DNA of 61,907 bases. Origin: Theionarchaea archaeon (lineage in GTDB: Archaea > Methanobacteriota_B > Thermococci > Methanofastidiosales > SZ-28-30). The notes beneath the pieces were generated by a model. That model saw nothing but the letters and a program-made list of their open reading frames with translations. It was not told the DNA's origin and ran no database searches. This document shows, piece by piece, positions 1-17,869 of this stretch (within the stretch, counting starts at the first letter, position 1; each line of letters begins with the position of its first letter). A program made the translations under genes and the position numbers. The stretch covers positions 1 to 61,907 of the forward strand of contig JACVGW010000007.1 of NCBI GenBank assembly GCA_018992565.1, read 5' to 3'.

Positions 1-849
1 AGATTGAAATCGTTCAAAACTATACATTGGGGAGGATACACGAAGATCGTGTATTATCCCCTTTTTTTCTAATTGCAGTATGCTGTCAATCTCAAGACGT
101 TTCTCAAAGAACAGGTTCAGGAGCATGGTGTTATCAATCCTATATACATAACTGGATCTGTCAATCTTTTTCAGTTCCTCCACAAACCCAGTCTCATAAT
201 CCGTTTCAAAAGAAACGAAATAAGGAGTGTAGTTCCCATAGCCATTGGGAAAGAAAGGGATCCAGATTGAGCAATCCCTCAGAATCCTCTTGTAGCTGTT
301 CAGGATTTTTCTGTGAGAGACTCCAAGTGCGCCTCCGATCTTAGTACTTGATTCAGTGGGATCCCTCCTTCTCTCAAAGACGTCCCAGTCGAAAGAAGAC
401 CAATCAGGTGGGGCCATACGAGGCAGTTTTCCTGGTTCATGAAGGCAGGGATCAATATTCTGTATCTCATTTTTCTGAGGGTAACTCGGAAAAATGCATT
501 TAGCATATGTCAGGTTAGTTCCTGTATCGCTTGCTGAAAAACACAAGAGTGAATGGGCCCCCAGTAACAGGACTGCATAGAAGGTGTCTTCATGGCTACT
601 TACCTTCTCAAACTGCTCCACAAGGGGAACGTGCCTGTATTCCACAAGTTCAACTCTGACCTTCTGTATGCAGAAAATACGGGGAGGAAATATGATCTTT
701 TCCTCTACTGCCTTATTCAAGAGTCGGAAGGTTGATTGCTTACGGTTAAACGGCTTGTACCATCGGTGAAATTTCGAGTACCTTACTTCCTTCGTCTCGA
801 TGCAATACTGAACATATGCATAGACAATGTCCAAATGGTGCGCTTCCAT
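1..849 (-). CDS. Hypothetical protein, 3-prime partial (runs off left edge); repeated HTH-plus-small-domain layout, possibly Lrp/AsnC-like
   Basis: Own minus-strand translation gives an uninterrupted frame from ATG at 849 to base 1, with an in-frame TGA at 967-969 upstream. Sequence: MEAHHLDIVYAYVQYC...PPDWSSFDWDVFERRRDPTESSTKIGGALGVSHRKILNSYKRIL...YVYRIDNTMLLNLFFEK. It is missing from the ORF track because no stop lies inside the window. Confidence 0.5.
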   Translation of the reverse strand, partial: MEAHHLDIVYAYVQYCIETKEVRYSKFHRWYKPFNRKQSTFRLLNKAVEEKIIFPPRIFCIQKVRVELVEYRHVPLVEQFEKVSSHEDTFYAVLLLGAHSLLCFSASDTGTNLTYAKCIFPSYPQKNEIQNIDPCLHEPGKLPRMAPPDWSSFDWDVFERRRDPTESSTKIGGALGVSHRKILNSYKRILRDCSIWIPFFPNGYGNYTPYFVSFETDYETGFVEELKKIDRSSYVYRIDNTMLLNLFFEKRLEIDSILQLEKKGIIHDLRVSSPMYSFERFQS

Positions 850-1816
850 GTAGGAGAAAATTAATATAAATCCTATATAAATCTTCCGTAGGTGTATCCC
901 GTTTTTCAAACAGGATTGTGCACATGGACTGAGATGCAGGCTGCGATAATCCGCCCCACTTAACCTTCATCTCAGCTTCCAGAAGCAGGGAGTTGAAAGA
1001 AGCGGAGGGTCGAAATGAACTTGAGAATGGAAGCTTTGGGACAAGGCTGCCAGAGCAGTCTCCCTACCAGAACTGGTGGTGGAGACAAAGACCTTTTGGG
1101 TACCAATGAAGGTTCGAAAACGAATTCTAGCCATCTTAACTCAGCCTGTGTGAGCTATAGGACTTTTGTGGGATTAATGAGGTTTCTCCTGACAGTGAGG
1201 AACCCTTCCCTCTGATATCAAGACCGAGAGAGCGGGGAGATTGAGGACTGTGCTGAAGTGGGCAGATTCACATCTTTCACCTCCCTTTCAGCCCTTGACC
1301 CTAAAGCTCTTTTGGTCCGGGGAAGGTTCTTCCTGGAGTTGAGTGTGAAATTCCAAGAAATGAGAGAATTCCTCACGTACGAGAAAAGAAATCCCTTGAC
1401 AACCTGACGGTTCTGTCCTGAATGGATTGCAGAACCTGTATCCACAGAAACACGTGAAGGTGTTGAGGAGATAGAAAATCTCAGAGATGGAGAACTTTCT
1501 AGTGACTACTGATGGGAATAGAGCGAGCACGAGAGAACCCACTCAAGTCAAAGAATATTGAAAACTCTCTGAAACTGGTAAATCCATTGGTAGAGACAAA
1601 GCTGGCCTATAAACCATGAAAAAAGCAAGAAAAGAAAGAGAAAGAGAAAAGAAGGCCAGGGTGCACTGGAGGAGCACAGAATGTGCTGGGATGCAGGCTG
1701 TCATTTTGTATAGGTAAGGACTGGAGTACGTTGCTTTTGACACTAATGTGAAGCTTAAAGGCTTCATCGAAACGTATTTAAATCTACTCAAGCTCTGTGA
1801 GCATGGAGGGAATCAT

Positions 1817-2857
1817 ATGAACAAAAGTATGAAGATGCTGTTCACCCTGGTAGTGCTGTGCTCCCTTGCACTGGGATGCATTGGACAGGAGGAAGAAACC
1901 ACCACTCCTGCACCGACTTCTACACCGGAAGCCCCTGCAATGAAGATTGCTGCTGTTTTTGCCACTGGTGGACTGGGAGACAAGAGCTTCAATGATAGTT
2001 GTTACGAAGGTATCAAGAAGGCCAAAGAGGATTTTGGCATCGAATTCGATTATGTTGAACCCACAGCCATTGCTGAATACGAAGGATTCCATAGGCAGTA
2101 TGCCAAATCCGAAGAATATGCGCTGATTATTGGTATTGGATTCGACCAGGCAGACGCCATCACTGCTGTTGCAGAGGAATACCCGGACCAGAAGTTCGCC
2201 ATTGTGGACATGGTGGTAGACAAGCCAAACGTGGCTTCTCTGGTATTCAGAGAGAATGAAGGTGGCTTCTTGGTTGGTGCAGCTGCGGGTCTGAAGACTG
2301 AGACTGACATGATCGGGTTTGTAGGTGGAATGGACATCCCCTTGATTCGCAAATTCCTGGCCGGCTACAAGTTTGGAGCTGAATATGTAAACCCAGACGT
2401 AGAAGTCACATGGAAATATGTGGGTGACTGGGTGGATCCTGCAAAAGGGAAGGAGCTTGCCCTTGCACAGTATGACGCAGGCGCAGATATCATATTTGCC
2501 CCTGCCGGAAGGTCCGGTCTGGGAGCTATCCAGGCGGCTTTTGAACGAGACAGGCTGGTCATTGGTGTGGACGCAGATCAGTGCGACACTATTGAGGGAG
2601 TGCCTGTGACGACCTTCTTGTGCAGCATGATAAAGCGCGTGGACCTTGCTGTGTATGAAACCATAAAGCAGGTTATTGACGGTACCTTTGCAGGTGGAGT
2701 TAAGAGCTTTGGTGCAAAGGAGAATGGTGTTGGCGCTTGTGACCACCTACCTGATGACATAAAAGACATTATCGAGGATTACAGGGAGAAAGTCGCATCT
2801 GGCGAAATCAAGGTTCCCACTGGTATTGACGAGGCCGGTGAATACACCTGGGACTAG
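1817..2857 (+). CDS. BMP-family (PnrA/Med-like) ABC transporter substrate-binding lipoprotein, nucleoside-type
   Basis: Internal ATG at 1817 preceded by GGAGGG. Signal peptide with lipobox (LVVLCSLALGC), Thr/Pro linker, then BMP-like core (AAVFATGGLGDKSFND, GFVGGMDIPLIRKF). Same strand as the cognate ATPase and permeases downstream. Confidence 0.9.
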   Translation: MNKSMKMLFTLVVLCSLALGCIGQEEETTTPAPTSTPEAPAMKIAAVFATGGLGDKSFNDSCYEGIKKAKEDFGIEFDYVEPTAIAEYEGFHRQYAKSEEYALIIGIGFDQADAITAVAEEYPDQKFAIVDMVVDKPNVASLVFRENEGGFLVGAAAGLKTETDMIGFVGGMDIPLIRKFLAGYKFGAEYVNPDVEVTWKYVGDWVDPAKGKELALAQYDAGADIIFAPAGRSGLGAIQAAFERDRLVIGVDADQCDTIEGVPVTTFLCSMIKRVDLAVYETIKQVIDGTFAGGVKSFGAKENGVGACDHLPDDIKDIIEDYREKVASGEIKVPTGIDEAGEYTWD

Positions 2858-2860
2858 TAC

Positions 2861-2892
2861 TTCTTCTTTTTACTTTTACTTTTTTGTTCCAA
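2861..2892 (+). terminator. Oligo-T tracts after the binding-protein gene (archaeal intrinsic terminator candidate)
   Basis: acttcttctttttacttttacttttttgtt lies directly after the stop at 2857. Confidence 0.3.
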
Positions 2893-3143
2893 GGTTCTGT
2901 CCAAGAGGCAGCTTTTTCTCTATTTCCTCTCAGGTGAACACTCTAGCTCCTTCTGACATGTGGTGATGCTCTCTGGAGAAATGAGAAAGAAGGTCATTTC
3001 ATTGAGAATCTCTGTATTTGACCTCAAATCAGCAAAAACAACTCGAAATATTAAGAATAATTGTCCTTAAAGACTACAAGTTATTCCAATTGCTCTTATT
3101 CAAGTACTATAAGAGTGATAATATTTGTAGAATTCATAGAAAT

Positions 3144-3158
3144 GGAAAAGTATTTAAA
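3144..3158 (+). promoter_or_regulatory. Candidate BRE/TATA (ggaaaag tatttaaa) for the small-peptide/radical-SAM cassette
   Basis: An AT-rich TATA-like octamer at 3151-3158 lies about 40 nt upstream of the ATG at 3199. The predicted transcription start falls just before the SD-like aggaagtgg at 3185-3193. Confidence 0.3.
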
Positions 3159-3198
3159 GATAAAAAGAAATCTTATACAACAATAGGAAGTGGAACCT

Positions 3199-3306
3199 AT
3201 GAACATGACTATCCTCATCGAAGCAGAAGAGCAAATCATGGAACCTCTGTGCATCACGGAAGGAACTGGCTCGTGGTGCTGCAAAATTTGCCACCCCTAT
3301 GTATGA
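3199..3306 (+). CDS. Candidate RiPP precursor peptide, 35 aa: MNMTILIEAEEQIMEPLCITEGTGSWCCKICHPYV
   Basis: Own translation; the ORF is below the track length cutoff. An SD-like aggaagtgg lies 6-14 nt upstream. The N-terminal half is acidic and Cys-free, and the last 18 residues carry 4 Cys (C-x8-CC-x2-C). It ends 52 nt before the first radical SAM/SPASM gene. Confidence 0.55.
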   Translation: MNMTILIEAEEQIMEPLCITEGTGSWCCKICHPYV

Positions 3307-3358
3307 GTCCATAAAAAAGGCAGTTCAACCTGCCTTTCTTTTTTCCGAGGTGAACCTC

Positions 3359-4702
3359 ATGAAAATATCCAACTTCAACATGATCATTCCCACAGAGACT
3401 CCTGGAGAATATCTGCTGGCTAACATGATGAGCGGTGCAGTAATAGGAATAGACGAAGAGCTGAAAGGAGCTCTGGAAGCTGAGAATCTTGACGTTCTGG
3501 ATTCTAGCTTACTCGAATCCCTAACAAATCTCAAGGTGATCATAGAAGACGACTTTGATGAATTCCGCAAATTCAAGGTGGGATATGAATACAGAAAATA
3601 TACAGTTGAATTTCCCCATTTCATGCTCATAACGACATATGCCTGCAATCTAGCATGTCCGTACTGCTATGAAGGAAAAGGAGAGCTCTTTCACGGGACA
3701 ATGAATGCTGACACCAGAGAAAGAACTATAAAATTCATAAAGAGGTATGTGGAAGACACCCGCGCACGAGAATTCTCTATATCACTGTATGGTGGTGAAC
3801 CACTCCTCAACTTCGATGACTCAGTATATATTATGGACTCCTGCTTTTCCTGGGCAGAAGAACGGGGAATACCATACGTGACAATGATGGTAACAAACGG
3901 TACCCTGGTCACGCCTGAAATAGCTGAAACATTGAAGCGGTACCACACAGACTATGTGCAGATCACGCTGGATGGTCCCAAACGCATCCACGATACCAAA
4001 CGATTCTATAAGAGTGGAGGAGGTACTTTTGACGACATGATGCAATCAGCTCGCATTCTGCAGGACCATGACGTCGGAGTGAGCTTCAGGGTGAATGTGG
4101 ATTCTGAAAGCAGGCCTTTCATCGGTGAACTGCTGGATGAACTTCAAGAGAGGGGATTCAAGAACGTCCCTGTGCGCTGTGGTACAGTCGGGGCATCGAC
4201 TCAAGCATGCAAGGACTACTCCAAGTGCATCAAAGAGGAAGAAGCCCGCGAAGTACTTGCTGAATTCAGAGATATTGTGGATCAAAAAGGTCAAACAGCA
4301 GCTGTCATTCGCACTCACAAGCCAGCTCACGTATTCTGTGGATTCTTAGGAGAAGGAACGTTCATCATAGATCCTCATGCTGATCTCTACAAGTGTCTCA
4401 CCTTTGTGGGGCAGAAGAGCCATTCAATTGGCCATATCTCAGAAGACGGTACTGTAAAAGAGTACACATGGGCATACTACGACTGGATGAGCAGAGATCC
4501 CCTGCAAATACCAGAGTGTCGCGAGTGCAAGATGCTGCCCTCCTGTGGTGGGGGATGTGCTGCTATTGCTTACGAGAAACACGGGACATACCATGCAGTT
4601 GGATGCTATGCACCGTACCAGGAAATGAAACATCAGCTTCGATGGTATCTCGAAAAGAAGCTTCCCGACAGGTTCAAGGCGGGAAAGATTGTCTGGGTTT
4701 GA
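3359..4702 (+). CDS. Radical SAM/SPASM-domain peptide-maturase-like protein 1
   Basis: CX3CX2C motif (ACNLACPYCYEG). C-terminal SPASM signature Cx2Cx5Cx3C (CRECKMLPSCGGGC) plus upstream FCG...YKC and a trailing VGC. About 95-aa N-terminal extension (YLLANMMSGAVIGIDEELKGAL) typical of peptide-binding maturases. Start chosen at the ATG after GAGGTG; an alternative ATG at 3299 overlaps the precursor stop. Confidence 0.9.
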   Translation: MKISNFNMIIPTETPGEYLLANMMSGAVIGIDEELKGALEAENLDVLDSSLLESLTNLKVIIEDDFDEFRKFKVGYEYRKYTVEFPHFMLITTYACNLACPYCYEGKGELFHGTMNADTRERTIKFIKRYVEDTRAREFSISLYGGEPLLNFDDSVYIMDSCFSWAEERGIPYVTMMVTNGTLVTPEIAETLKRYHTDYVQITLDGPKRIHDTKRFYKSGGGTFDDMMQSARILQDHDVGVSFRVNVDSESRPFIGELLDELQERGFKNVPVRCGTVGASTQACKDYSKCIKEEEAREVLAEFRDIVDQKGQTAAVIRTHKPAHVFCGFLGEGTFIIDPHADLYKCLTFVGQKSHSIGHISEDGTVKEYTWAYYDWMSRDPLQIPECRECKMLPSCGGGCAAIAYEKHGTYHAVGCYAPYQEMKHQLRWYLEKKLPDRFKAGKIVWV

Positions 4703-4707
4703 TCATC

Positions 4708-6036
4708 ATGCAGAGATCAAAGTACTGCTTTATTATCCCATGCAAAGAGGAGTATCTTGTATATAATACAATCAACGGGTCTCTGGCGGTGATTGATTCT
4801 GAAACGTATGATGTCCTCATGGCAGGGAAAGGGCCCCCTGAGGTAGTTGATGCGCTGTCACAGCAGAGACTTCTCATAGAGGATGCCTGTCAAGAGATGG
4901 ACATGGTGCAGGCCTCATTGGAAGAGAAGAAGTGGCGTCCCCCCTCTACAGGATACCGGGGATCTCCTCTTGGAAGAGTGGCATTTTTGAACTTCATTAT
5001 CACTCACGAGTGCAACTTGAACTGCAGTTACTGCTACAGGAATTCTTCTACCTGCTCCGGGCACATGAGCCAGAACGTGGCAGAAAGAGGGATAGCATTT
5101 GCTGAGAATCAGATTGCATCAGACATTGACACGCTTTTTGTCAGTTTCTACGGGGGAGAACCATTCCTGAATCAAGAGCGCATGGCTTTCATCGCTGAAA
5201 CCTTGCAAGAAGTGTGCAACGAAGCAGGTGTCTCTCTTTTGATCAAACTCTTCACCAATGGGACTCTCCTCACTGCCGAGCAACTTGACCAGCTCTCACA
5301 GTTCACTGTAGCAGATATTCATATCACTCTTGATGCACCAGAGCGCTATCACCACACCAGGAGAGTTTTCCATGATGGAACCAGCAGCCTTCAATCGGTT
5401 GTGCAGGGTGCCCACTGTGTTGAAGACAGGGGCATGAACCTGATATTACGAATTAACATATGGGAAGACAATATCATCCCTTTTCTTGAAATGTTGAGAG
5501 GAGCTGGCCTCGAGAAGGCCCACATCTATTTTGGGACAGTCACTCCACGCATGGATTACTGTACCCACTACTACAGCTCCTACGGATATCCGGGGACTTC
5601 AGATCTTTTCAGTGAGGTCATGGGGATGGTGATCCACAAGGGGTTCACTATACTTCCTTTTGGAATAGGAGTGTATTTTTCTCTGTGTGCTGGTGTCACT
5701 GACTGGTTTCACATCATTGATGTGGATGGCCGTGTTTACAAGTGCATGTCTCTGGTGGGAGATGCCCGCTATGCTGCAGGGTCTTTGGACTCTCGGGGTT
5801 CATTGAAAAAAACACCTGCGTATTACTCGTGGATGGCCCGCAACCCTTTGATTATTTCTGAATGCAAGAACTGCGTTATGCTTCCCCGGTGTATGGGTGG
5901 ATGTCCTGCCATTGCATTGAGAGAGAAAGGAACACTCGATGCTCCTGGCTGCTTTACTGTGGATTTCACCAGGCAGGTCTACGGGTTACCACAGGTAAAA
6001 ACATACATCAGTAGGCACAAGGAGGGCCATGAATGA
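4708..6036 (+). CDS. Radical SAM/SPASM-domain peptide-maturase-like protein 2
   Basis: Starts MQRSKYCFIIPCKEEYLVYNTINGSLAVIDSETYDVL, 5 nt after the previous stop. CX3CX2C motif (ECNLNCSYCYRN) and SPASM CKNCVMLPRCMGGC. The first 105 codons of the track ORF 4393..6036 overlap gene 1 out of frame and are not credible. Confidence 0.9.
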   Translation: MQRSKYCFIIPCKEEYLVYNTINGSLAVIDSETYDVLMAGKGPPEVVDALSQQRLLIEDACQEMDMVQASLEEKKWRPPSTGYRGSPLGRVAFLNFIITHECNLNCSYCYRNSSTCSGHMSQNVAERGIAFAENQIASDIDTLFVSFYGGEPFLNQERMAFIAETLQEVCNEAGVSLLIKLFTNGTLLTAEQLDQLSQFTVADIHITLDAPERYHHTRRVFHDGTSSLQSVVQGAHCVEDRGMNLILRINIWEDNIIPFLEMLRGAGLEKAHIYFGTVTPRMDYCTHYYSSYGYPGTSDLFSEVMGMVIHKGFTILPFGIGVYFSLCAGVTDWFHIIDVDGRVYKCMSLVGDARYAAGSLDSRGSLKKTPAYYSWMARNPLIISECKNCVMLPRCMGGCPAIALREKGTLDAPGCFTVDFTRQVYGLPQVKTYISRHKEGHE

Positions 6037-7850
6037 TACTGAACTGTCTGCCCCCTTACAGCTACGACATTCCCAATCCAGCTTTAGGGTATCTGAAGGG
6101 GTTCCTGCAATCAAAAGGAATCCCTGTGACAAATGTCTACTGGAATCTAGTGCTTGCTGAGGAGTTATCAAAATTCCAGACTCATATTGGGGACTACCCC
6201 GTGTTTTCATCCCTATCCTCTCTTAATACTCCAGTGCTGTATGCAGTAAGACACCTCTCAAGTCGTCACCGCGAGAAGACCGTCCTTGACCAGTATTTTT
6301 CACCATACTTTGACCACGGGAAGGAACCCACTTTTGTCGACTCGCTGCGGACAAAAATAGATGACTATATCTACCAGAACAGCCTGCACAAAGAGTCTCT
6401 AGCAGGATTCACGTTGAAAACATACCAGTGGCTTCTGGGCTCCCATATAATGAGACGGCTGAAAGAACTAAATCCTCATATGCAGATTGTCATAGGAGGG
6501 CTCCGCAATAGTGAACAGGCTCAGACCTTCATGCGGTTTTTCACGCTGGCTGACTACGCTGTATGGGGAGAGGGAGAATATCCTTTGTTCCACCTGGTTC
6601 AAAGTATACGAGAAGGAACGTTCAATGAGGTCCCTCATCTGGTGTACCGGGATGGTGCTGCTATCACTTCCACAGAAAAGGATTCCGAAAATTGTGACCT
6701 GGATTCATACCCGTTTGCGGACCACACAGACTATTTTGCAGCATTGAATGCCTGCATCCATGAAGATATGCGAGTCATCATCCCCATATGGGGGTCACGC
6801 TCATGCCCCTGGAACAGGTGTAAATTCTGCGTCTTGAATGAAGAGTTCTCATATCGAGCCCGGTCTCCTGAAAATATCGTTGAAGAACTGGAATACCAGT
6901 CCAGGAGATATGGGTGTGACACCTTTGTATTTGTAGATACCGAACTTCCTGGTAATACGAAGCGATTCGACCATCTCCTGGCCCTTATTGTAGCAAGCTC
7001 GGAAAGAAGGGGACGTCCCTACTGTCTCTTTGCAGAGGCATCTCCTATCTTTGTTAATCCTGACACAGTACAGGCCATGAAGAAGGCTTGTTTTGAAATT
7101 GTGCAGATTGGGTTTGAAGCAATGACCGATGGCCTCTTGGAGAAAATGAAAAAGAGACACTCTTTTGCTCATAACATTCAGGCTTTAAAGCTAGGAGACC
7201 AATACGGCCTTGAGATTAAGGGGAATTTTATAGCAGAGACGCCGCCTGAAACTGAGGAAGACGTTCTGGAGAGTTGTGTGAATCTGAAATTTCTGAGATT
7301 TTCTCTGAGGAAGTACTCCATTGTCCCCAAGTACTTCACACTGTACAAGGGATCACCATACTACAATGAGATGTCAGAATATGAAAGAGAGGCCTACGAC
7401 AAAGACCCTATGTGGGCAGAGGTTGCATCGGTTTTACAGCTGCCAGACAGCGAGCGGTTTGAATTCTTTGGATTCTTTGCAGGGAAAATCCGCCATTACC
7501 TCTTGTGGAATACGTTTCAAAGACTTCTGCAGTTCTATTCACGAACAGGAAGTGATTATCAATGGACAGAATATCCCGATTATTCCTTATTTGAAGAAAA
7601 AGGATCAAGATCCCTAGACTTTTCCCTTAGTAGAGATGAGACTGATGTTCTGGTTTTCTGCGACAGCATAAAATCATTCACCCAAGTACAGCAGCACTTT
7701 TCCCATCTGGAGGAGAAAAAGCTTCTGCACGTATTGGAGATTCTGAAAGAGAGGGGGTTGCTGTACTGTGACCGGTCTCTTGGGAATATTATCTCAGTAG
7801 TGAGAGCAGATGAGAGAGTGATGAGTACAGAGCTGGAGAAAAATCACTGA
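6033..7850 (+). CDS. B12-binding-domain radical SAM protein (RiPP-maturation rSAM type, TIGR03975-like)
   Basis: ATGA start/stop overlap with the previous gene. The N-terminus MILNCLPPYSYDIPNPALGYLKGFLQSKGIPV and IVIGGLRNSEQ resemble a cobalamin-binding Rossmann part. Cys triad SRSCPWNRCKFC, followed by a long C-terminal domain. Confidence 0.85.
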   Translation: MILNCLPPYSYDIPNPALGYLKGFLQSKGIPVTNVYWNLVLAEELSKFQTHIGDYPVFSSLSSLNTPVLYAVRHLSSRHREKTVLDQYFSPYFDHGKEPTFVDSLRTKIDDYIYQNSLHKESLAGFTLKTYQWLLGSHIMRRLKELNPHMQIVIGGLRNSEQAQTFMRFFTLADYAVWGEGEYPLFHLVQSIREGTFNEVPHLVYRDGAAITSTEKDSENCDLDSYPFADHTDYFAALNACIHEDMRVIIPIWGSRSCPWNRCKFCVLNEEFSYRARSPENIVEELEYQSRRYGCDTFVFVDTELPGNTKRFDHLLALIVASSERRGRPYCLFAEASPIFVNPDTVQAMKKACFEIVQIGFEAMTDGLLEKMKKRHSFAHNIQALKLGDQYGLEIKGNFIAETPPETEEDVLESCVNLKFLRFSLRKYSIVPKYFTLYKGSPYYNEMSEYEREAYDKDPMWAEVASVLQLPDSERFEFFGFFAGKIRHYLLWNTFQRLLQFYSRTGSDYQWTEYPDYSLFEEKGSRSLDFSLSRDETDVLVFCDSIKSFTQVQQHFSHLEEKKLLHVLEILKERGLLYCDRSLGNIISVVRADERVMSTELEKNH

Positions 7851-7986
7851 ACTAGACCAGTCAGAGAACTTGAGAGACAGAGGTGCCAGGCTCTATAGGA
7901 GCTGTCCGCTGTTACCATGAGAGTCCATCCCCTCCAATATTGCCGTGTGACATGCAACCGGTAGACTTTTTAAGGGATGTGCACTT

Positions 7987-9516
7987 GTGATGTCAATGAA
8001 TGCAGAACCCATCAATGCTGTGGAGATGCAACACATAACCATGCGCTTCCCTGGTGTTCTGGCCAATGATGACATTACTTTTTCAGTTAGGAAAGGAGAA
8101 ATTCATGCTCTTCTTGGAGAAAATGGTGCAGGAAAAACCACGTTAATGAACGTCCTCTATGGATTATACCAGCCTGGTTCTGGAGAGATTTCTGTCAATG
8201 GTAACCCTGCTAAAATAGCAAATCCTAATGATGCTATTTCACTTGGGATCGGGATGATCCACCAGCACTTCATGCTGGTACCTCCCTTCACTGTGGCCGA
8301 AAACGTTGTCCTGGGGGTTGAACCAAAAGCCTATTTCTTCATGGACACAGAAAGAGCAATAAGCGATGTTGAAGAAATCTCAAAACGGTATGGTCTCATT
8401 GTAGACCCAGGAGCCAAAGTCCAGGACATATCAGTGGGAATTGAACAGCGAGTGGAAATCTTGAAAGCGTTGTACCGCGGAGCTGAAATTCTCATTCTGG
8501 ACGAACCGACAGCAGTCCTAACTCCACAAGAAGTGGAAGAGCTGTTCAAGGTTATGAAATCGTTGAAAGAAGAAGGAAAAACAATCATTTTCATCACTCA
8601 CAAGTTGAAGGAGCCCATGGCAACCTGTGACCGCATCACTGTGCTGAGAAAAGGACGATTAATAGGAACAGTCCACACCGAGAAGACAGATGTTGCGAAC
8701 CTGGCCAGGATGATGGTGGGTAGAGACGTCTGCCTGGTTGTAGAGAAACCTCCTCACCCTTCAGGAGAGGCAGTGATGCAGGTGCAGAACCTGGAAGCAT
8801 ACAATGATAGAGAAGTGAAAGCACTACAGGGGATAACACTGGAACTGCGAAAAGGTGAGATACTTGGTATTGCAGGAGTGGAAGGCAATGGCCAGCTGGA
8901 GCTGGCAGAGTGTATGACTGGGCTGCGAAGCCCGCGTGCCGGCAAAATTCTCGTACATGGAAAAGACGTCACCCACTCTTCTGCACGGGATTTCATCAAT
9001 GCAGGAGTGTCTCACATCCCTGAAGACCGTCAGAAAAGAGGGCTGATCCAAGATTTCTCTCTGTCAGAAAACCTGATACTGGGATCTCATTTCAAGGCTC
9101 CTTTTTCACATGGGTTCAGAATGGACTATGAAAAGGTGGATGCATATGCATCCCAGCTAGCGAAGACTTTTGATATCAGAGGAACAGGTGTACACAGCCT
9201 GGTCAAGTATCTGTCAGGCGGAAACCAGCAGAAAGTGATTGTGGCCCGAGAACTGGGGAGAGAACCAGAGATCATCATCGCTTCCCAGCCCACCAGAGGT
9301 CTTGACGTAGGCGCCATCGAGTTCATCCATGAGACTCTTCTCGCCATGAGGAAAAAAGACAAGGCCATACTCCTTATCTCTGCAGACCTGGATGAGGTCT
9401 GCTGTCTTTCTGACCGAATCGCTGTCATCTACGAAGGAAAGATTGTGGGGGAGCGAGACTCTCAAAAGACTACTGAAGAAGAACTGGGATTGTTGATGGC
9501 AGGTGGACATGCATGA
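7987..9516 (+). CDS. ABC transporter ATP-binding protein with duplicated ATPase domains (BMP/sugar-nucleoside type)
   Basis: Walker A GENGAGKTT and GVEGNGQLE, signature LSGGNQQKV, Walker B ILILDEPT. Start is GTG 7987 or ATG 7990. Confidence 0.93.
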   Translation: MMSMNAEPINAVEMQHITMRFPGVLANDDITFSVRKGEIHALLGENGAGKTTLMNVLYGLYQPGSGEISVNGNPAKIANPNDAISLGIGMIHQHFMLVPPFTVAENVVLGVEPKAYFFMDTERAISDVEEISKRYGLIVDPGAKVQDISVGIEQRVEILKALYRGAEILILDEPTAVLTPQEVEELFKVMKSLKEEGKTIIFITHKLKEPMATCDRITVLRKGRLIGTVHTEKTDVANLARMMVGRDVCLVVEKPPHPSGEAVMQVQNLEAYNDREVKALQGITLELRKGEILGIAGVEGNGQLELAECMTGLRSPRAGKILVHGKDVTHSSARDFINAGVSHIPEDRQKRGLIQDFSLSENLILGSHFKAPFSHGFRMDYEKVDAYASQLAKTFDIRGTGVHSLVKYLSGGNQQKVIVARELGREPEIIIASQPTRGLDVGAIEFIHETLLAMRKKDKAILLISADLDEVCCLSDRIAVIYEGKIVGERDSQKTTEEELGLLMAGGHA

Positions 9517-10592
9517 AACCACAATTTGCGAAATTAGCCCAGCTGGTTCAGAAAGAAAGCTTAATGGACATTTTTATTTCAATAATAGCTGTTATCGCTG
9601 CCCTTCTGGTGGGGGCAGTTATTGTGTATGCGGCAGGTTCATCACCCTTAGAAGCATACAAAGCACTGTTTGATGGCGCATTTGGGAGTACGTATGACTT
9701 TGCTCAGACTCTGACCCGGGCAACACCCCTCATTTTTACCGGGCTGACTGTAGCCTTTGCTTTTCGATGTGGGCTGTTCAACATTGGTGGTGAGGGACAG
9801 CTGTATATGGGAGCTATCACTGCGGCTGTTGTAGGGATCAAGTTTGCCTGGCTTCCCTGGTATCTTCACATACCTCTGGCACTGGGAGCTGGAGCAGCAG
9901 CAGGTGGCATCTGGTCACTGGTGCCCAGTGTGTTAAAGGCACGAGTGGGTGCTCATGAAGTGATTACCACCATCATGATGAACTATATTGGGGTACTCCT
10001 GTGCAACTACCTGGCCAACTATCCCTTGAAGGCTGAAGGATGGATTGCTCAGACTGATGTTGTTGCAGCCTCAGCACAGCTTCCACGACTGGTGCCTTCT
10101 ACCCAGCTATCAGCAGCCATTATTGTGGCACTCATATGTGTAGGCATCACGTACTACATTCTCTATAAGACCACACTAGGGTATGAGATCAGGGCAGTGG
10201 GATTGAGCCCCACAGCGGCTGAATATGGGGGGATCAGCGTCCAGAAGAGCATAATCGTATCTATGTTCATATCTGGAATGCTTGCAGGACTGGGCGGATC
10301 AGGTGAAGTACTGGGACTGCACAGACGATTTATTTTTGGGTTTTCTCCCGGCTATGGGTTTGACGGAATTGCAATTGCTGTTCTGGGCAGGAATCATCCG
10401 GTAGGGGTGGTATTGGGTGCGCTGCTGTTTGGTGCTCTCAGGAATGGAGGTATGGTTATGAAACAGGTGACCAATGTGCCCACAGACCTCGTGGTGGTCA
10501 TCCAGGGTATTGTGATACTATTCGTGGCAGCTCCTGAAATGTTCAGAATCTTCAAGAGGATCAGGAAAGGAGGGATTGCCGATGCTTTCTAG
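9513..10592 (+). CDS. ABC transporter permease (BMP-family system)
   Basis: ATGA overlap with the ATPase stop. Polytopic hydrophobic protein (FNIGGEGQLYMGA, GFDGIAIAVLG) typical of this permease family. Confidence 0.9.
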   Translation: MKPQFAKLAQLVQKESLMDIFISIIAVIAALLVGAVIVYAAGSSPLEAYKALFDGAFGSTYDFAQTLTRATPLIFTGLTVAFAFRCGLFNIGGEGQLYMGAITAAVVGIKFAWLPWYLHIPLALGAGAAAGGIWSLVPSVLKARVGAHEVITTIMMNYIGVLLCNYLANYPLKAEGWIAQTDVVAASAQLPRLVPSTQLSAAIIVALICVGITYYILYKTTLGYEIRAVGLSPTAAEYGGISVQKSIIVSMFISGMLAGLGGSGEVLGLHRRFIFGFSPGYGFDGIAIAVLGRNHPVGVVLGALLFGALRNGGMVMKQVTNVPTDLVVVIQGIVILFVAAPEMFRIFKRIRKGGIADAF

Positions 10593-11502
10593 TATTGCCA
10601 TACTACTTGGTGCGACCTTGAGGATATCCCCTCCTATCGCCCTGGCTTCCATTGGGGGAGCATACTCAGAACGCAGTGGTGTCATCAATATCGGGTTAGA
10701 AGGTATGATCCTGATGGGTGCTTTTGCAGGGGTGGCAGGCACGCACTTTCTGGGAAATGCCTGGGTTGGTGTTCTGTTTGCAGTTCTGGCGGGCGGAGCC
10801 CTGGGGCTCCTGCATGCAGTGCTCTGTATCAAGTTTAAAGCCAACCAGGTTGTCAGCGGAGTGGGTGTCAATATTCTGTCTCTGGGATTGACAACCTTAC
10901 TGCTACAGATCATCTGGGGAAACAGGGGAGCGTCAGATCCTGTCTCTGGGTTGAAACCACTGTCCATACCGGTGATTAGAGACATTCCCTATCTCGCAGA
11001 TGTTCTTGACCAGCAGAACCCTCTGGTGTACATTATGATTGTCATCGTCCTGGTTGCCTGGGCTGTCATGTTCAGGACTCCTCTAGGATTGAGAATCAGG
11101 GCAGTAGGAGAACACCCGGAAGCTGCAGATACGGTGGGAATACGTGTGCATCGGATCCAGTACATGTGTGTAACAGCCAGTGGCATGTTATCGGGATTGG
11201 GAGGTGCTTACCTTTCTCTGGGATGGTTGAACCTATTCAGCCAGAACATGTCTGCAGGAAGAGGGTTCATCGCTTTGGCAGCAAATATCTTTGGAAAATG
11301 GAACCCTGCGGGAGCTTTTGGAGCCAGCCTGCTCTTCAGCTTTACTGATGCTTTGCAGATAAAACTGCAGGGAATAGTGGCAGTCAATCAGTTTATTCAG
11401 ATGATTCCCTACATTCTGACTATTCTGGTCTTGGCTGGAGCAGTAAAGAGAGCTGTACCTCCTGCAGCCCTGGGGAAATATTACGAGAAGGGAAAGAAAT
11501 AG
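10582..11502 (+). CDS. ABC transporter permease (second subunit)
   Basis: ATG at 10582 lies behind GGAAAGGAGGG and overlaps the previous gene end. Motifs INIGLEGMILMGAF and GRGFIALAANIFG. Confidence 0.9.
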   Translation: MLSSIAILLGATLRISPPIALASIGGAYSERSGVINIGLEGMILMGAFAGVAGTHFLGNAWVGVLFAVLAGGALGLLHAVLCIKFKANQVVSGVGVNILSLGLTTLLLQIIWGNRGASDPVSGLKPLSIPVIRDIPYLADVLDQQNPLVYIMIVIVLVAWAVMFRTPLGLRIRAVGEHPEAADTVGIRVHRIQYMCVTASGMLSGLGGAYLSLGWLNLFSQNMSAGRGFIALAANIFGKWNPAGAFGASLLFSFTDALQIKLQGIVAVNQFIQMIPYILTILVLAGAVKRAVPPAALGKYYEKGKK

Positions 11503-11718
11503 GTCCATTCTCCCCTTTCCAATGGGGATGTAGAAAAGGTAGCAGGTGTAAGAAGACCTGTCCTTCAAGAATTGCTATAAAATCTGTTGCTTTCTCTACG
11601 AACTCAGAATATTCTTCTTTTGAGCCTCATTTTTGTCTTTTTATAAAGATAAGTAAGTCACTAACGGTATTAGAAGAGCCCTGGAAACGCTTAAGAATAT
11701 GACAAAGAAGGGCCCAAA

Positions 11719-11913
11719 ATGGAAGCTGAATCAACTACCGAGAAGAAAGATCCTGTTGACGATGGGACTCTTTATCTTGCAGCAGGAGGAGGACTGACAG
11801 CTGTTGCAGTAGCTGGTGTTGCCGCAAGTACTGTGTGCCCTGTTTGCGTCGTGGGAGCTCCCCTTCTCGTAGGATATGGATTGTACAAGAAGTACAGGCA
11901 CAGGAGCCCATAG
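11719..11913 (+). CDS. Small hypothetical membrane protein (64 aa)
   Basis: Acidic N-terminus, then one Gly/Ala/Val-rich hydrophobic segment with CPVC and a basic tail KKYRHRSP. A TATA-like tttttataaag lies about 70 nt upstream. Confidence 0.4.
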   Translation: MEAESTTEKKDPVDDGTLYLAAGGGLTAVAVAGVAASTVCPVCVVGAPLLVGYGLYKKYRHRSP

Positions 11914-12126
11914 TCTCCGTGCAGAGATAGGGTCAGCAAGAGAGAGGAGAATCCATTTCATTACCTAGACAGATGATGGTGGAATTGTGCACCAGATGGC
12001 TCTGGAGAAGAATATTGAGAATACATGAAGAATTGACTGGCTACGCAGATCAAAAGGAATGACTAGTGAAAGACTGGAAGGCCAATGCCAACATGAATAG
12101 ACACCTGTTGAGGTGCTGTTCCGAAG

Positions 12127-15289: not shown

Positions 15290-17869
15290 TCAGGTGGGTT
15301 CCGGACAATCTCTACTCCATTTTCCCTGTGCTTTCTCTCTTTCTTTTTCTGCTGATATCTGCTGAAATAATTGAAGTGCAATCTCGTAATAGGAAGCAGC
15401 TTCCTCAGGTGCTCCGTGTTTTTTCATGCCAAGTCCAAATTCCAAATAGGTTTTCCCCAGTTCCAAAGGCGAACCACCAGTCTCATCAATGCTCTTCTGG
15501 TAAAGCTCCTTTGCTCTCTCCCATTCTCCTCTCTGCTGCAATACCATAGCATATATCCTGCAGAACTCTCCATGATGAAGGCTCTTCCCAAGCATAGAAA
15601 ACATGTTCTCACATACCTCGCAGAGAGAATGAGCCTTCTCCAATTCTCCCTTCTCCAGGAGGAGACCTGCCATTTTCATCTTCAAGTAGGTAGTAGAATA
15701 CAAATCCTCCAGCGATTCTGCCAGTTGTAGAGCTCTCTGGTAGTAGTTTTCTGCCAGATCACCCTCTCCCCCTTCTGCGTACACCATACCCAGGTTCCCA
15801 CATGAGATGATCTGATCTCTGATATCTGAAATCCTTTCTGATATATTGAGGGTCCTCTTAAAGCACGAGATTGCCTTTTCGAAATCTCCCTTGTAGAAGT
15901 GGATCAGCCCCAGTGTATTGAAGTTGGCTGCAATGCCTCTTACATCCCGCACCTCCTCAGCCAGGGTCAGACTCTCAGTGTGATACTGGAGAGCTGTATC
16001 AAATTGATCCTGATAGTAGTAAACATTAGCCATTCCCCTCAGCATCTGTGAAAGGCCGTACATGAACCCACTTTTCTCAGCAATCGCCTTTCCTGCCTCA
16101 AAATGAGAGAGTGCCTCTCCAAATAGCCCCTCTTTCATCAACAGCAGTCCAATGTCTGCATGAATACTGACCATTTCCTTGTGTTCCTGGAGTCTTTCCA
16201 GTATATCCAAACTGGTGTCAAAGCACGTATGTGCTGTCTTCCAGTCTCCTTTTGAAGCATAGATATTTCCTATCCAATGCAGAGCTCGGGCATCATATGC
16301 GTCAGAGTTAATGTTCCGTGCAGTCTTCTGCATTTCCTCAAATGCTCGAAGTGCATTCTTGGAATCCCCATATAAGGCCAGAATCCTGCCTTTGGCACAC
16401 ATTATAGAGCACCACAACTCAGATGGCACTCGTGATTTCCTGAACCCGTTCAAAATATCCAGATATGGTGACAAATACCCCCTCTCTATCAAATCGACGT
16501 CTTGAGGTTGTGCTACGAGACGGGCAGCCTCCTCATGGTTTCCACCCTGCAGGAAGTGATACATGGATTCCAGCAGCCCCTCTGGGGTGCCTTGACATCT
16601 GTAAGAGTCAGCGATTTCTGTATGTAATTGCGCCTCATCAGGAACTCTCTGATAGGTAAACTCAACAATTGAAGAGGGAAGCACATACCCTCCATCCTGC
16701 CTCCTGATAAACATGCGCTTTTCCAGCCCTTTCAAGCAGGTCCAGAACCCAGGAACCAGGCACACCTTCTTGAGGATTTCAACTGATGCAGGTATACGGA
16801 ACATGGACAAACACTCCACAAGCTTCCGCTCTTCCTCTGACAGAGTCTGAAATATCTCGCTCCACAGATAGTCCTCCACCTGATTCCCCGGGAGATTGTC
16901 CAGGACAAGGCGAGGCTGCTTTTCTTTTGCTGCTTCACAGAACATGTCCAGCATCAGAGGATGACCTCCCAGCTTCTTATGGGCTTTTTTCATCATTTTA
17001 TCTCCCAGAATAACTCCTCTAGAGTGAAGGAGCTCTCTGGCTTCCTTTTCAGTAAAAGCGGATAACCTGATCTCCTTAATATCACTCCGGGATATGGTGA
17101 CAAAGGAGGGACGTTCCCGGGAAGTGATAATAATCTGTGCACCAGGGTCTTTGAGCAACTTGAACATCGTGACAAGTTCTGAATCCTGCACTTTCTGGAA
17201 CCCATCAAAACAGAATATCATGTCCTCTGTCATTCCCTGCTGAAAGAGGGAAATAAGCACCCTGCTGTCCCTCCCCTCCTGTTTTATATACTCCAGAAGG
17301 TTAGAAAGGCCCACGTTATTCAGGAATACAGACAGCTTATTAATAACGTAGTGAAAAGAGTCAATGTCAGTGAAGGAATGCCAGAAAATCTTTTTCCCCT
17401 TCGCCTGTGCACTTCGTGCATACTCTGCTGCCAGAAAGGTCTTTCCAATGCCTGCCAATCCCTCAATGACCACTATTGAGTGAGAATCAATCGACTGCAG
17501 CTCCTGCCTTCTATTGATGAACCCATGCGCTTCAGGTATTTCAAACTTGAAAGCATCATAGGATACTGACACTTCTTTCTCACCCTTTGTCTTTACACAG
17601 AGCTTCAACCCTTCGGGCTCAAAGGCAATGCTAATCTCTTTTGTGTCAACATAGTACAGCTTAACATTGCGCTCTCGATATGCCCACTGGCTGCGTAAAA
17701 TACCCATTTTCTCAAGATTTGAGAGAATCCTAGAGATATATCCCTCTTGCATTCCCAAAATCTCAGATATCTTTCGGGGATAGGACGGTTCGTTCCTCAA
17801 CAGATTTATGATCTCGAGGTTAGTCTTATTTGAAAGTGTCTTTAGGAGTTCCTGCGTGTGAACCTCCAT
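15290..17869 (-). CDS. wHTH (ArsR-like) - STAND/AAA ATPase - TPR repeat regulator-like protein
   Basis: N-terminus NLEIINLLRNEPSYPRKISEILGMQEGYISRILSNLEKMGIL, Walker A EGLAGIGKTFLA, Walker B-like MIFCFDGFQ. The C-terminal ~400 aa carry repeated TPR-like units (ALxxYxxAL patterns). Confidence 0.85.
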   Translation of the reverse strand: MEVHTQELLKTLSNKTNLEIINLLRNEPSYPRKISEILGMQEGYISRILSNLEKMGILRSQWAYRERNVKLYYVDTKEISIAFEPEGLKLCVKTKGEKEVSVSYDAFKFEIPEAHGFINRRQELQSIDSHSIVVIEGLAGIGKTFLAAEYARSAQAKGKKIFWHSFTDIDSFHYVINKLSVFLNNVGLSNLLEYIKQEGRDSRVLISLFQQGMTEDMIFCFDGFQKVQDSELVTMFKLLKDPGAQIIITSRERPSFVTISRSDIKEIRLSAFTEKEARELLHSRGVILGDKMMKKAHKKLGGHPLMLDMFCEAAKEKQPRLVLDNLPGNQVEDYLWSEIFQTLSEEERKLVECLSMFRIPASVEILKKVCLVPGFWTCLKGLEKRMFIRRQDGGYVLPSSIVEFTYQRVPDEAQLHTEIADSYRCQGTPEGLLESMYHFLQGGNHEEAARLVAQPQDVDLIERGYLSPYLDILNGFRKSRVPSELWCSIMCAKGRILALYGDSKNALRAFEEMQKTARNINSDAYDARALHWIGNIYASKGDWKTAHTCFDTSLDILERLQEHKEMVSIHADIGLLLMKEGLFGEALSHFEAGKAIAEKSGFMYGLSQMLRGMANVYYYQDQFDTALQYHTESLTLAEEVRDVRGIAANFNTLGLIHFYKGDFEKAISCFKRTLNISERISDIRDQIISCGNLGMVYAEGGEGDLAENYYQRALQLAESLEDLYSTTYLKMKMAGLLLEKGELEKAHSLCEVCENMFSMLGKSLHHGEFCRIYAMVLQQRGEWERAKELYQKSIDETGGSPLELGKTYLEFGLGMKKHGAPEEAASYYEIALQLFQQISAEKEREKAQGKWSRDCPEPT

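Follow-up and report, generated by a model that had tools for sequence, protein, structure and literature searches.

The locus considered here raises a two-part question: is a 35-codon open reading frame (ORF) just upstream of three radical S-adenosylmethionine (SAM) enzyme genes the precursor of a peptide made on the ribosome and modified after translation (a RiPP), and if so, what do the enzymes do to it? The stretch of DNA analyzed, referred to below as the window, consists of 61,907 nt from a Theionarchaea archaeon (assembly GCA_018992565.1, contig JACVGW010000007.1). The Theionarchaea are an uncultured sediment lineage and, to our knowledge, almost no archaeal radical-SAM RiPPs have been characterized. 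An original prediction from the letters of the window had proposed a precursor gene followed by three tailoring enzymes. It is very probable that the locus is a RiPP cassette with the 35-amino acid (aa) peptide as its substrate; the fuller reading, a Theionarchaea-type RiPP cassette matured by all three enzymes, is judged to be probable.

A short gene ahead of three radical-SAM enzymes

The cassette occupies 4.7 kb and comprises four same-strand genes: the peptide ORF, gene 1 (“A”), gene 2 (“B”), and gene 3. The peptide ORF (3199-3306) ends 52 nt before the gene 1 ATG (3359), the gene 1 stop (4702) is followed after 5 nt by the gene 2 ATG (4708), and genes 2 and 3 overlap by an ATGA (6033-6036), all exactly as first described. 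Its features are:

3144..3158, + strand: promoter, with a purine-rich GGAAAAG resembling a B recognition element (BRE; 3144-3150) and a TATA box, TATTTAAA (3151-3158), 41-48 nt 5' of the peptide ATG
3186..3193, + strand: Shine-Dalgarno-like GGAAGTGG, 5 nt before the ATG; relatives have GGAGGT at the same place
3199..3306, + strand: putative precursor peptide gene, 35 aa, translation MNMTILIEAEEQIMEPLCITEGTGSWCCKICHPYV; identified by conserved homologues and a third-position substitution bias
3316..3345, + strand: terminator- or attenuator-like hairpin (8 bp stem, 3316-3337) then CTTTTTT, separating the peptide gene from the enzyme genes; identified by sequence and RNA fold
3359..4702, + strand: gene 1 (A), radical SAM/SPASM peptide maturase, 447 aa; identified by PF04055 and TIGR04085 matches, an AlphaFold2 (AF2) model, and likeness to CteB
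4708..6036, + strand: gene 2 (B), paralogous radical SAM/SPASM maturase, 442 aa; identified by profile matches
6033..7850, + strand: gene 3, predicted cobalamin-type (class B) radical SAM enzyme, 605 aa; identified by TIGR03975 alignment, AF2, and Foldseek

A 35-codon ORF is unremarkable in itself; this one goes beyond chance because it is conserved as a coding sequence. A homologous peptide ORF adjoins the A orthologue in related loci L001, L007, L089 (two copies), L090, L091, L093, L094, L095, and L101, where the A proteins are 56-92% identical to that of the window (ten further loci in all), and a diverged version with a TTG start is present in L087 and L088. Peptide and A co-occur strictly in this family. 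In L092 (about 850-967) the peptide gene has decayed (MNISVLVGKKEGEPLYPLRGKSAW..., Cys-less) and runs into a seemingly intact A orthologue. Between the window and L007, substitutions at codon positions 1, 2, and 3 number 6, 2, and 16. The core EPLCITEGTGSWCC encodes the same amino acids in both, all 8 differences within it being synonymous.

The signals around the ORF are conserved as well. The Shine-Dalgarno-like and TATA-like elements of the original prediction are both present, and their position is kept in relatives: a GAAAnn-TTTATAAA element stands at a matching distance in all nine other peptide loci compared, and GAAAnnTTTATAAA-type BRE/TATA sequences 40-50 nt upstream, with a GGAGGT-type Shine-Dalgarno sequence, occur in the ten compared peptide loci plus L101. 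The hairpin folds at -14.2 kcal/mol (z = -2.9); comparable hairpins, differing in sequence and each with a T-run after it, occupy this position in L001, L007, L087, L089b, L090, L091, L093, L094, and L101, the exception being L089a. Promoter, precursor, partial terminator, and enzymes make up a typical RiPP operon layout. This comparative evidence shows the ORF to be a genuine coding gene under selection, with the hallmarks of an expressed one, and the expectation that it would be conserved beside orthologous enzymes has been borne out.

The peptide can be divided into a putative leader (residues 1 to about 14-16, MNMTILIEAEEQIM), the conserved 14-residue core, and a tail, KICHPYV, with Cys at positions 18, 27, 28, and 31. 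The family consensus is MNMKVLVGAEEKVxEPLC[IP]xEGxGx[WV]CC followed by 2-7 mostly aromatic residues. In intact peptides the three core Cys are invariant, L093 and L095 have Val in place of Trp26, and the tails differ in both length and sequence (IYWW, VYWW, IYWY, PYV, and PYF among relatives).

A public gene call at this position, P0001 (467 aa), starts gene 1 at the ATG of the longest ORF (3299), inside the peptide ORF, masking both the peptide gene and the hairpin. The start at 3359 is favored: it is preceded by GAGGTG (3347-3352), and orthologues begin MKxSNFN.

Few counterparts of the peptide turned up in database searches. Pfam and NCBIfam scans at E values up to 10 gave no match, and a phmmer search of 1.84 billion representative sequences yielded two true relatives only (P0141 and P0143). 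Five other matches from that search are repeat proteins and were judged unrelated. A degenerate DNA pattern for EPLCxxEGxGxxCC, run against 185,579 species-representative genomes, matched solely the already known sister metagenome-assembled genome (MAG). The peptide query also matched P0139, a 499-aa protein outside the window with a signal peptide and about 14 repeats of DPLCLFHGQGCWKR, set apart by KR sites and acidic spacers. P0139 has the look of a multi-core precursor processed by a fungal KEX2, and its likeness to EPLCxxEGxGxWCC is probably convergent.

How constant is the set of enzymes accompanying the peptide? When the genes of the related cassettes were classified by tblastn, five arrangements were found:

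Peptide + A: L087, L088
Peptide + A + B: L007 (cobalamin, or B12, enzyme gene absent nearby)
Peptide + A + B remnant + B12 enzyme: L101
Peptide + A + B + B12 enzyme: the window, L001
A + peptide + A + B + YcaO + B12 enzyme: L090, L093, L094, L095, and the 17.7-kb JGI contig of P0004

A alone among the enzymes occurs in all cassettes of the family. L101 is a natural B deletion: with the same peptide, A (87% identical), and the B12 enzyme (75% identical), it has a B collapsed to a 52-aa remnant (7846-8004), the first residues being fused to the last 41 or so. Together the arrangements form a natural “deletion series” (A; A+B; A+B12; A+A+B+YcaO+B12) that suggests which enzyme is essential. Features of the peptide track the enzymes: peptides of the cassettes in which no YcaO turned up end in [KR]IC[HS]PY[VF], with a fourth Cys, and where YcaO is present, the peptide has Arg23 and tails YV or IYWW. 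The family is small and confined to Theionarchaea-type genomes, and the window's cassette represents one of its several compositions. Another small ORF (MDMEHVCIDEEYW[HR]LY...FLVTVM) is found 5' of the first A copy in two closely related cassettes of the YcaO type, L093 (about 925-1010) and L095 (about 88-170); it is not present in L090 or L094.

An alternative role for the short ORF is that of a regulatory upstream ORF, or leader-peptide attenuator, working through the hairpin, with the enzymes' substrate encoded elsewhere. A hairpin and T-run directly after an ORF is indeed also the layout of attenuators, but this one begins 9 nt past the stop, outside the ORF, and hence offers no alternative-pairing logic. 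Over about 50% divergence of the enzymes, selection has acted on the amino acids, chiefly in the C-terminal half with its Cys residues, the tail co-varies with enzyme content, and the RRE-like domain predicted for A (see below) is of the kind that binds peptide leaders. This role is considered highly improbable, and the ORF is treated below as the precursor.

The three enzymes

A and B are paralogues, 30% identical, and both carry the radical SAM motif CX3CX2C (CNLACPYC in A, CNLNCSYC in B; PF04055 at 70.1 and 55.3 bits, cut-off 29.5) and a full SPASM Cx2Cx5Cx3C signature (CRECKMLPSCGGGC and CKNCVMLPRCMGGC; TIGR04085 at 57.2 and 47.7 bits, passing the cut-off of 27 in both), in agreement with the original prediction. 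Each has eight further C-terminal Cys, a number sufficient for two auxiliary clusters, which in A are invariant over 17 orthologues; A has eleven invariant Cys in this set. The N-terminal extensions, at first put at ~95-130 aa, are about 87-96 aa once the correct starts are used, and the YxxNxxxGSxxxIDxE pattern ascribed to both fits gene 2 better, gene 1 having Yx3Nx2SGx5DxE instead.

The A orthologues form a tight group at 56-74% identity, plus one at 92% in a Theionarchaea MAG; a profile search of metagenomes with the A alignment returned L007, a few homologues at 33-36%, and otherwise mostly proteins of ~25% identity. Upstream of the distant A-like genes of Theionarchaea (33-36% identity, L003-L010), the peptides are different or none is obvious. 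The B family is very narrow: a search returned 12 proteins of at least 48% identity, including the window's own and two relatives at 80-82%, all others being at or below 29%.

The best curated families for A and B are all peptide (RiPP) maturases: CefB, TIGR04463, Clo7bot, geopeptide, and PapB. The CefB model (NF038107) gives 388.1 bits for A and 218.9 for B against a cut-off of 600; among ranthipeptide models, PapB (NF047865) gives 161.6 and 117.5 (cut-off 340) and SCIFF (TIGR03974) 100.1 and 80.7 (cut-off 425). Scores with models of sactipeptide maturases are low (RumMC 73 bits, StsB 15 bits). These matches place A and B, by sequence, among RiPP-type maturases.

Could the two SPASM enzymes instead mature a protein, in the manner of anaerobic sulfatase maturases (anSMEs) or QhpD, the short ORF being incidental? 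Structures of anSMEs are among the fold matches, and the TIGR03942 and TIGR03906 matches are significant. Their scores, however, are far below the family cut-offs and below those of the RiPP maturases: 89.1 bits for A and 61.2 for B with the sulfatase maturase model TIGR03942 (cut-off 349), and 95.0 and 72.7 with QhpD (cut-off 453). Nor do anSMEs have the N-terminal domain present here; no sulfatase or quinohemoprotein gene was found nearby or in the rest of the window, and the peptide co-occurs with the enzymes. Protein maturation by A and B is scarcely credible on these grounds. For the mycofactocin enzyme MftC, A scores 61.4 bits (cut-off 265), and for B this family is not among the 25 listed. 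The two enzymes do not fall with either sulfatase or cofactor maturases; such a placement had been named in the original prediction as one that would refute it.

The closest structure in the PDB to A, by sequence (E 4.5e-21) as well as by fold and over a full-length alignment, is CteB (5WGG/5WHY). The N-terminus of the AF2 model has the topology of a RiPP recognition element (RRE): three strands (7-11, 17-22, and 27-32) come first, and three helices (33-40, 49-57, and 68-81) come after them. An RRE-like N-terminal domain in A is supported at the level of the predicted fold.

Gene 3 had been described as having a B12-binding-like N-domain, and the predicted fold bears this out: the AF2 model (pLDDT 87.5) combines a Rossmann-like N-domain with a radical SAM barrel, the expected cobalamin-type architecture, and the best Foldseek matches are TsrM, OxsB, MgmA, TokK, and CysS (E 2e-16 to 1e-12). 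TIGR03975 aligns over residues 6-580 of 605 at 174.6 bits, under its cut-off of 281.85, and PF02310 gives 18.3 bits (cut-off 32.1). The cluster motif reported earlier, CPWNRCKFC, is present (C258, C263, and C266; window 6804-6830), but its spacing is CX4CX2C rather than the canonical CX3CX2C, and this spacing is kept, as CPWN[KR]CKFC, in 120 of the 120 gene 3 homologues examined (P0145-P0264). The same spacing has been documented for OxsB (PMC9204698). Near the C-terminus (residues about 508-573, window 7554-7751), three strands and then three helices are predicted in an RRE-like winged-helix topology, a module that suggests that gene 3 may recognize the peptide leader on its own.

Gene 3 orthologues in related cassettes are ~50% identical, and the wider family is large: it contains >200 sequence clusters, and all organism names given by the sources are Theionarchaea or Methanofastidiosia, to which the family appears, from its sampled members, to be almost entirely confined. 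With more than 200 clusters here and about a dozen B proteins, the Theionarchaea and Methanofastidiosia seem to hold many more cassettes centered on this enzyme, with other partners and other peptides. A large lineage-specific family of cobalamin-type radical SAM enzymes with an unusual cluster motif is thereby brought to light.

Proposed maturation and product, and genomic setting

How might the four genes work together? The BRE/TATA promoter would drive transcription of the 35-aa gene, and the hairpin and oligo-T following its stop would probably end most transcripts, so that precursor mRNA would outnumber read-through into the enzyme genes. A would bind the N-terminal leader of the peptide (M-x-M-K/T-V/I-L-...E-E) through its RRE-like N-domain and, using a 5'-deoxyadenosyl radical and two auxiliary [4Fe-4S] clusters, cross-link the core EPLCxxEGxGxWCC, the likeliest product being a thioether from Cys sulfur to carbon, as with CteB or PapB. 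B might then install a second cross-link in the same core, and gene 3 might add one or more methyl groups at unactivated carbons. The residues linked, the type of bond, methylation, removal of the leader, and the role of the product are what we infer by analogy. Formation of at least one Cys thioether seems somewhat favored, and for C-methylation by gene 3 the case is evenly balanced.

Several results weigh against maturation of the peptide by all three enzymes along these lines. None of the three reaches the curated cut-off of any named family, so there is no confident basis for transferring a chemistry to them. For A, the AF2 model is of moderate quality (pLDDT 71.5), with the SPASM region poorly modeled, and the RRE/PqqD-like character first attributed to both N-domains is supported by the predicted fold in the case of A, but the Pfam PqqD/RRE model matched neither N-domain when these were searched in isolation. 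The CX4CX2C spacing of gene 3 is that of OxsB, which is non-methylating. B, YcaO, and the B12 enzyme are accessory, since each is lacking in some cassettes. Finally, the original prediction had seen no leader protease, exporter, or immunity gene, and indeed no leader protease, peptide exporter, or immunity gene was found in the cassette, and none stands out in the 62-kb window.

One possibility is that the cassette is of the same RiPP kind with other chemistry: A and/or B would form C-C or C-N links via Trp or the aromatic tail, like enzymes of the cyclophane or Lys-Trp type, and the cobalamin enzyme would be non-methylating. SPASM enzymes close in sequence can differ greatly in chemistry (PMC10878394). 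The tails are rich in aromatic residues, and in most members a Trp precedes the CC pair; the cyclophane-forming families YhhB, GrrM/OscB, and FxsB match significantly, though more weakly; the second-best PDB sequence match of A is TigE, a cyclopropyl synthase; and OxsB, whose cluster spacing gene 3 shares, is not a methylase. Yet it is Cys, not the aromatics, that never varies in the intact peptides, and the families and structures that match best are those of thioether formers and of enzymes acting on Cys-rich peptides. Chemistry of this other sort is held to be a tentative possibility, and thioether formation remains the preferred assignment.

A second possibility is that the modified peptide stays in the cell as a peptide-derived redox cofactor or metal binder, instead of being secreted as an antimicrobial or signal. 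This would account for the absence of protease, exporter, and immunity genes, and no such gene was found to recur across the relatives' loci among the called genes inspected. Many bacteriocin cores are hypervariable, whereas this very short core, with its three invariant Cys, shows strong conservation, and there is a precedent in the biosynthesis of pyrroloquinoline quinone (PQQ) and mycofactocin, which also employs SPASM enzymes. On the other side, the scores are much better for RiPP natural-product maturases than for MftC, and PqqE does not figure in the 25 best families; the cassette has no linked partner dehydrogenase or other enzyme dependent on a cofactor; and its patchy distribution, differing contexts, and gene losses (B in L101, the peptide in L092) fit an accessory trait better than a core cofactor. 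An intracellular product is regarded as unlikely. A bolder proposal joins new cross-link chemistry (for example, centered on Cys-Cys-Trp and carried out by both SPASM enzymes, or a non-methylating cobalamin reaction) to an intracellular, metal, or redox role; it too is doubtful, but if true it would mean that this cassette founds a new class of RiPPs specific to archaea.

The setting of the cassette involves four neighboring genes, all outside the cassette itself:

1748..2857, + strand: BMP/PnrA-family ABC substrate-binding protein (SBP); PF02608, 236 bits
7987-9516, + strand: ABC ATPase of the same importer; profile matches
9513-10592, + strand: permease of the same importer; profile matches
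10576-11502, + strand: second permease of the same importer; profile matches

The cassette thus sits (within 2858-7986) between the SBP gene and the ATPase and permease genes of one BMP/PnrA-type ABC importer. The gap between SBP and ATPase genes is 5,130 nt in the window; of 74 homologous operons in other genomes, 70 have a gap of <500 nt. The cassette was therefore inserted into an importer operon. L001, whose A is 92% identical, shows the same placement within the importer; other relatives hold the cassette in unrelated neighborhoods. As for signs of mobility, there are no direct or inverted repeats flanking the cassette and no GC or compositional anomaly. An Rfam scan of positions 1-12000 gave no match to a non-coding RNA or riboswitch.

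The window itself matches Theionarchaea MAG contigs GCA_019008925.1 and ERZ18242345 NODE_298. Its remaining proteins belong to ordinary metabolism and housekeeping, and no YcaO was found among them. One side observation is a large protein on the - strand (15290-17869) with ArsR-type helix-turn-helix (HTH), NB-ARC, and TPR regions (STAND-type); TPR-rich proteins also neighbor the cassette in L091 and L092.

Significance and comparison with known systems

The Theionarchaea are shown by this locus to carry peptide-modifying machinery of the radical-SAM RiPP type. The cassette is compact and delimited, and its validated precursor gene, missed or overlapped by public gene calls, makes it testable by heterologous co-expression. 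A search of the literature on Theionarchaea and archaeal RiPPs, ranthipeptides, SPASM precursors, TIGR03975, and Methanofastidios* biosynthetic gene clusters found no description of the peptide family.

Which known systems come closest? For A and B it is CefB (“Cys-every-fifth”, NF038107), the top curated family for both: with A the alignment covers 1-437 of 444, and the likeness extends to the entire architecture, N-terminal domain included (residues 1-87 of A score 47 bits when taken alone). The CefB family has been defined bioinformatically, and no paper on it was found in the literature. Unlike the peptides for which that family is named, the window peptide lacks a Cys-every-fifth periodicity (Cys 18, 27, 28, and 31), and identity to the bacterial homologues among the matches is ~35%.

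The maturases CteB (SCIFF/thermocellin) and PapB (freyrasin) resemble A and B in combining radical SAM and SPASM domains, with Cys for two auxiliary clusters, and a co-encoded short Cys-rich peptide; their RRE has a counterpart in the predicted RRE-like domain of A. They differ in that identity is 20-23%, the window precursor shows no relation to SCIFF or CX3D repeats, and the host of the window cassette is archaeal. Gene 3, for its part, aligns end to end with TIGR03975 and shares with TsrM, OxsB, MgmA, TokK, and CysS the predicted cobalamin-type Rossmann domain and radical SAM barrel, but it is below the TIGR03975 cut-off and has CX4CX2C instead of CX3CX2C.

There is also a resemblance to multi-enzyme radical-SAM/YcaO clusters, in which thioethers are combined with azolines or thioamides: sister cassettes add a YcaO and a second A around the same peptide family, whereas the window cassette has no YcaO, its peptide instead having an extended tail with a fourth Cys (KICHPYV). 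Taken together, the kind of system is a known one, a radical-SAM RiPP cassette nearest to ranthipeptide/CefB-like maturases with a TIGR03975-like enzyme; its peptide family is undescribed and lineage-specific, and in that sense new in its members without being categorically new.

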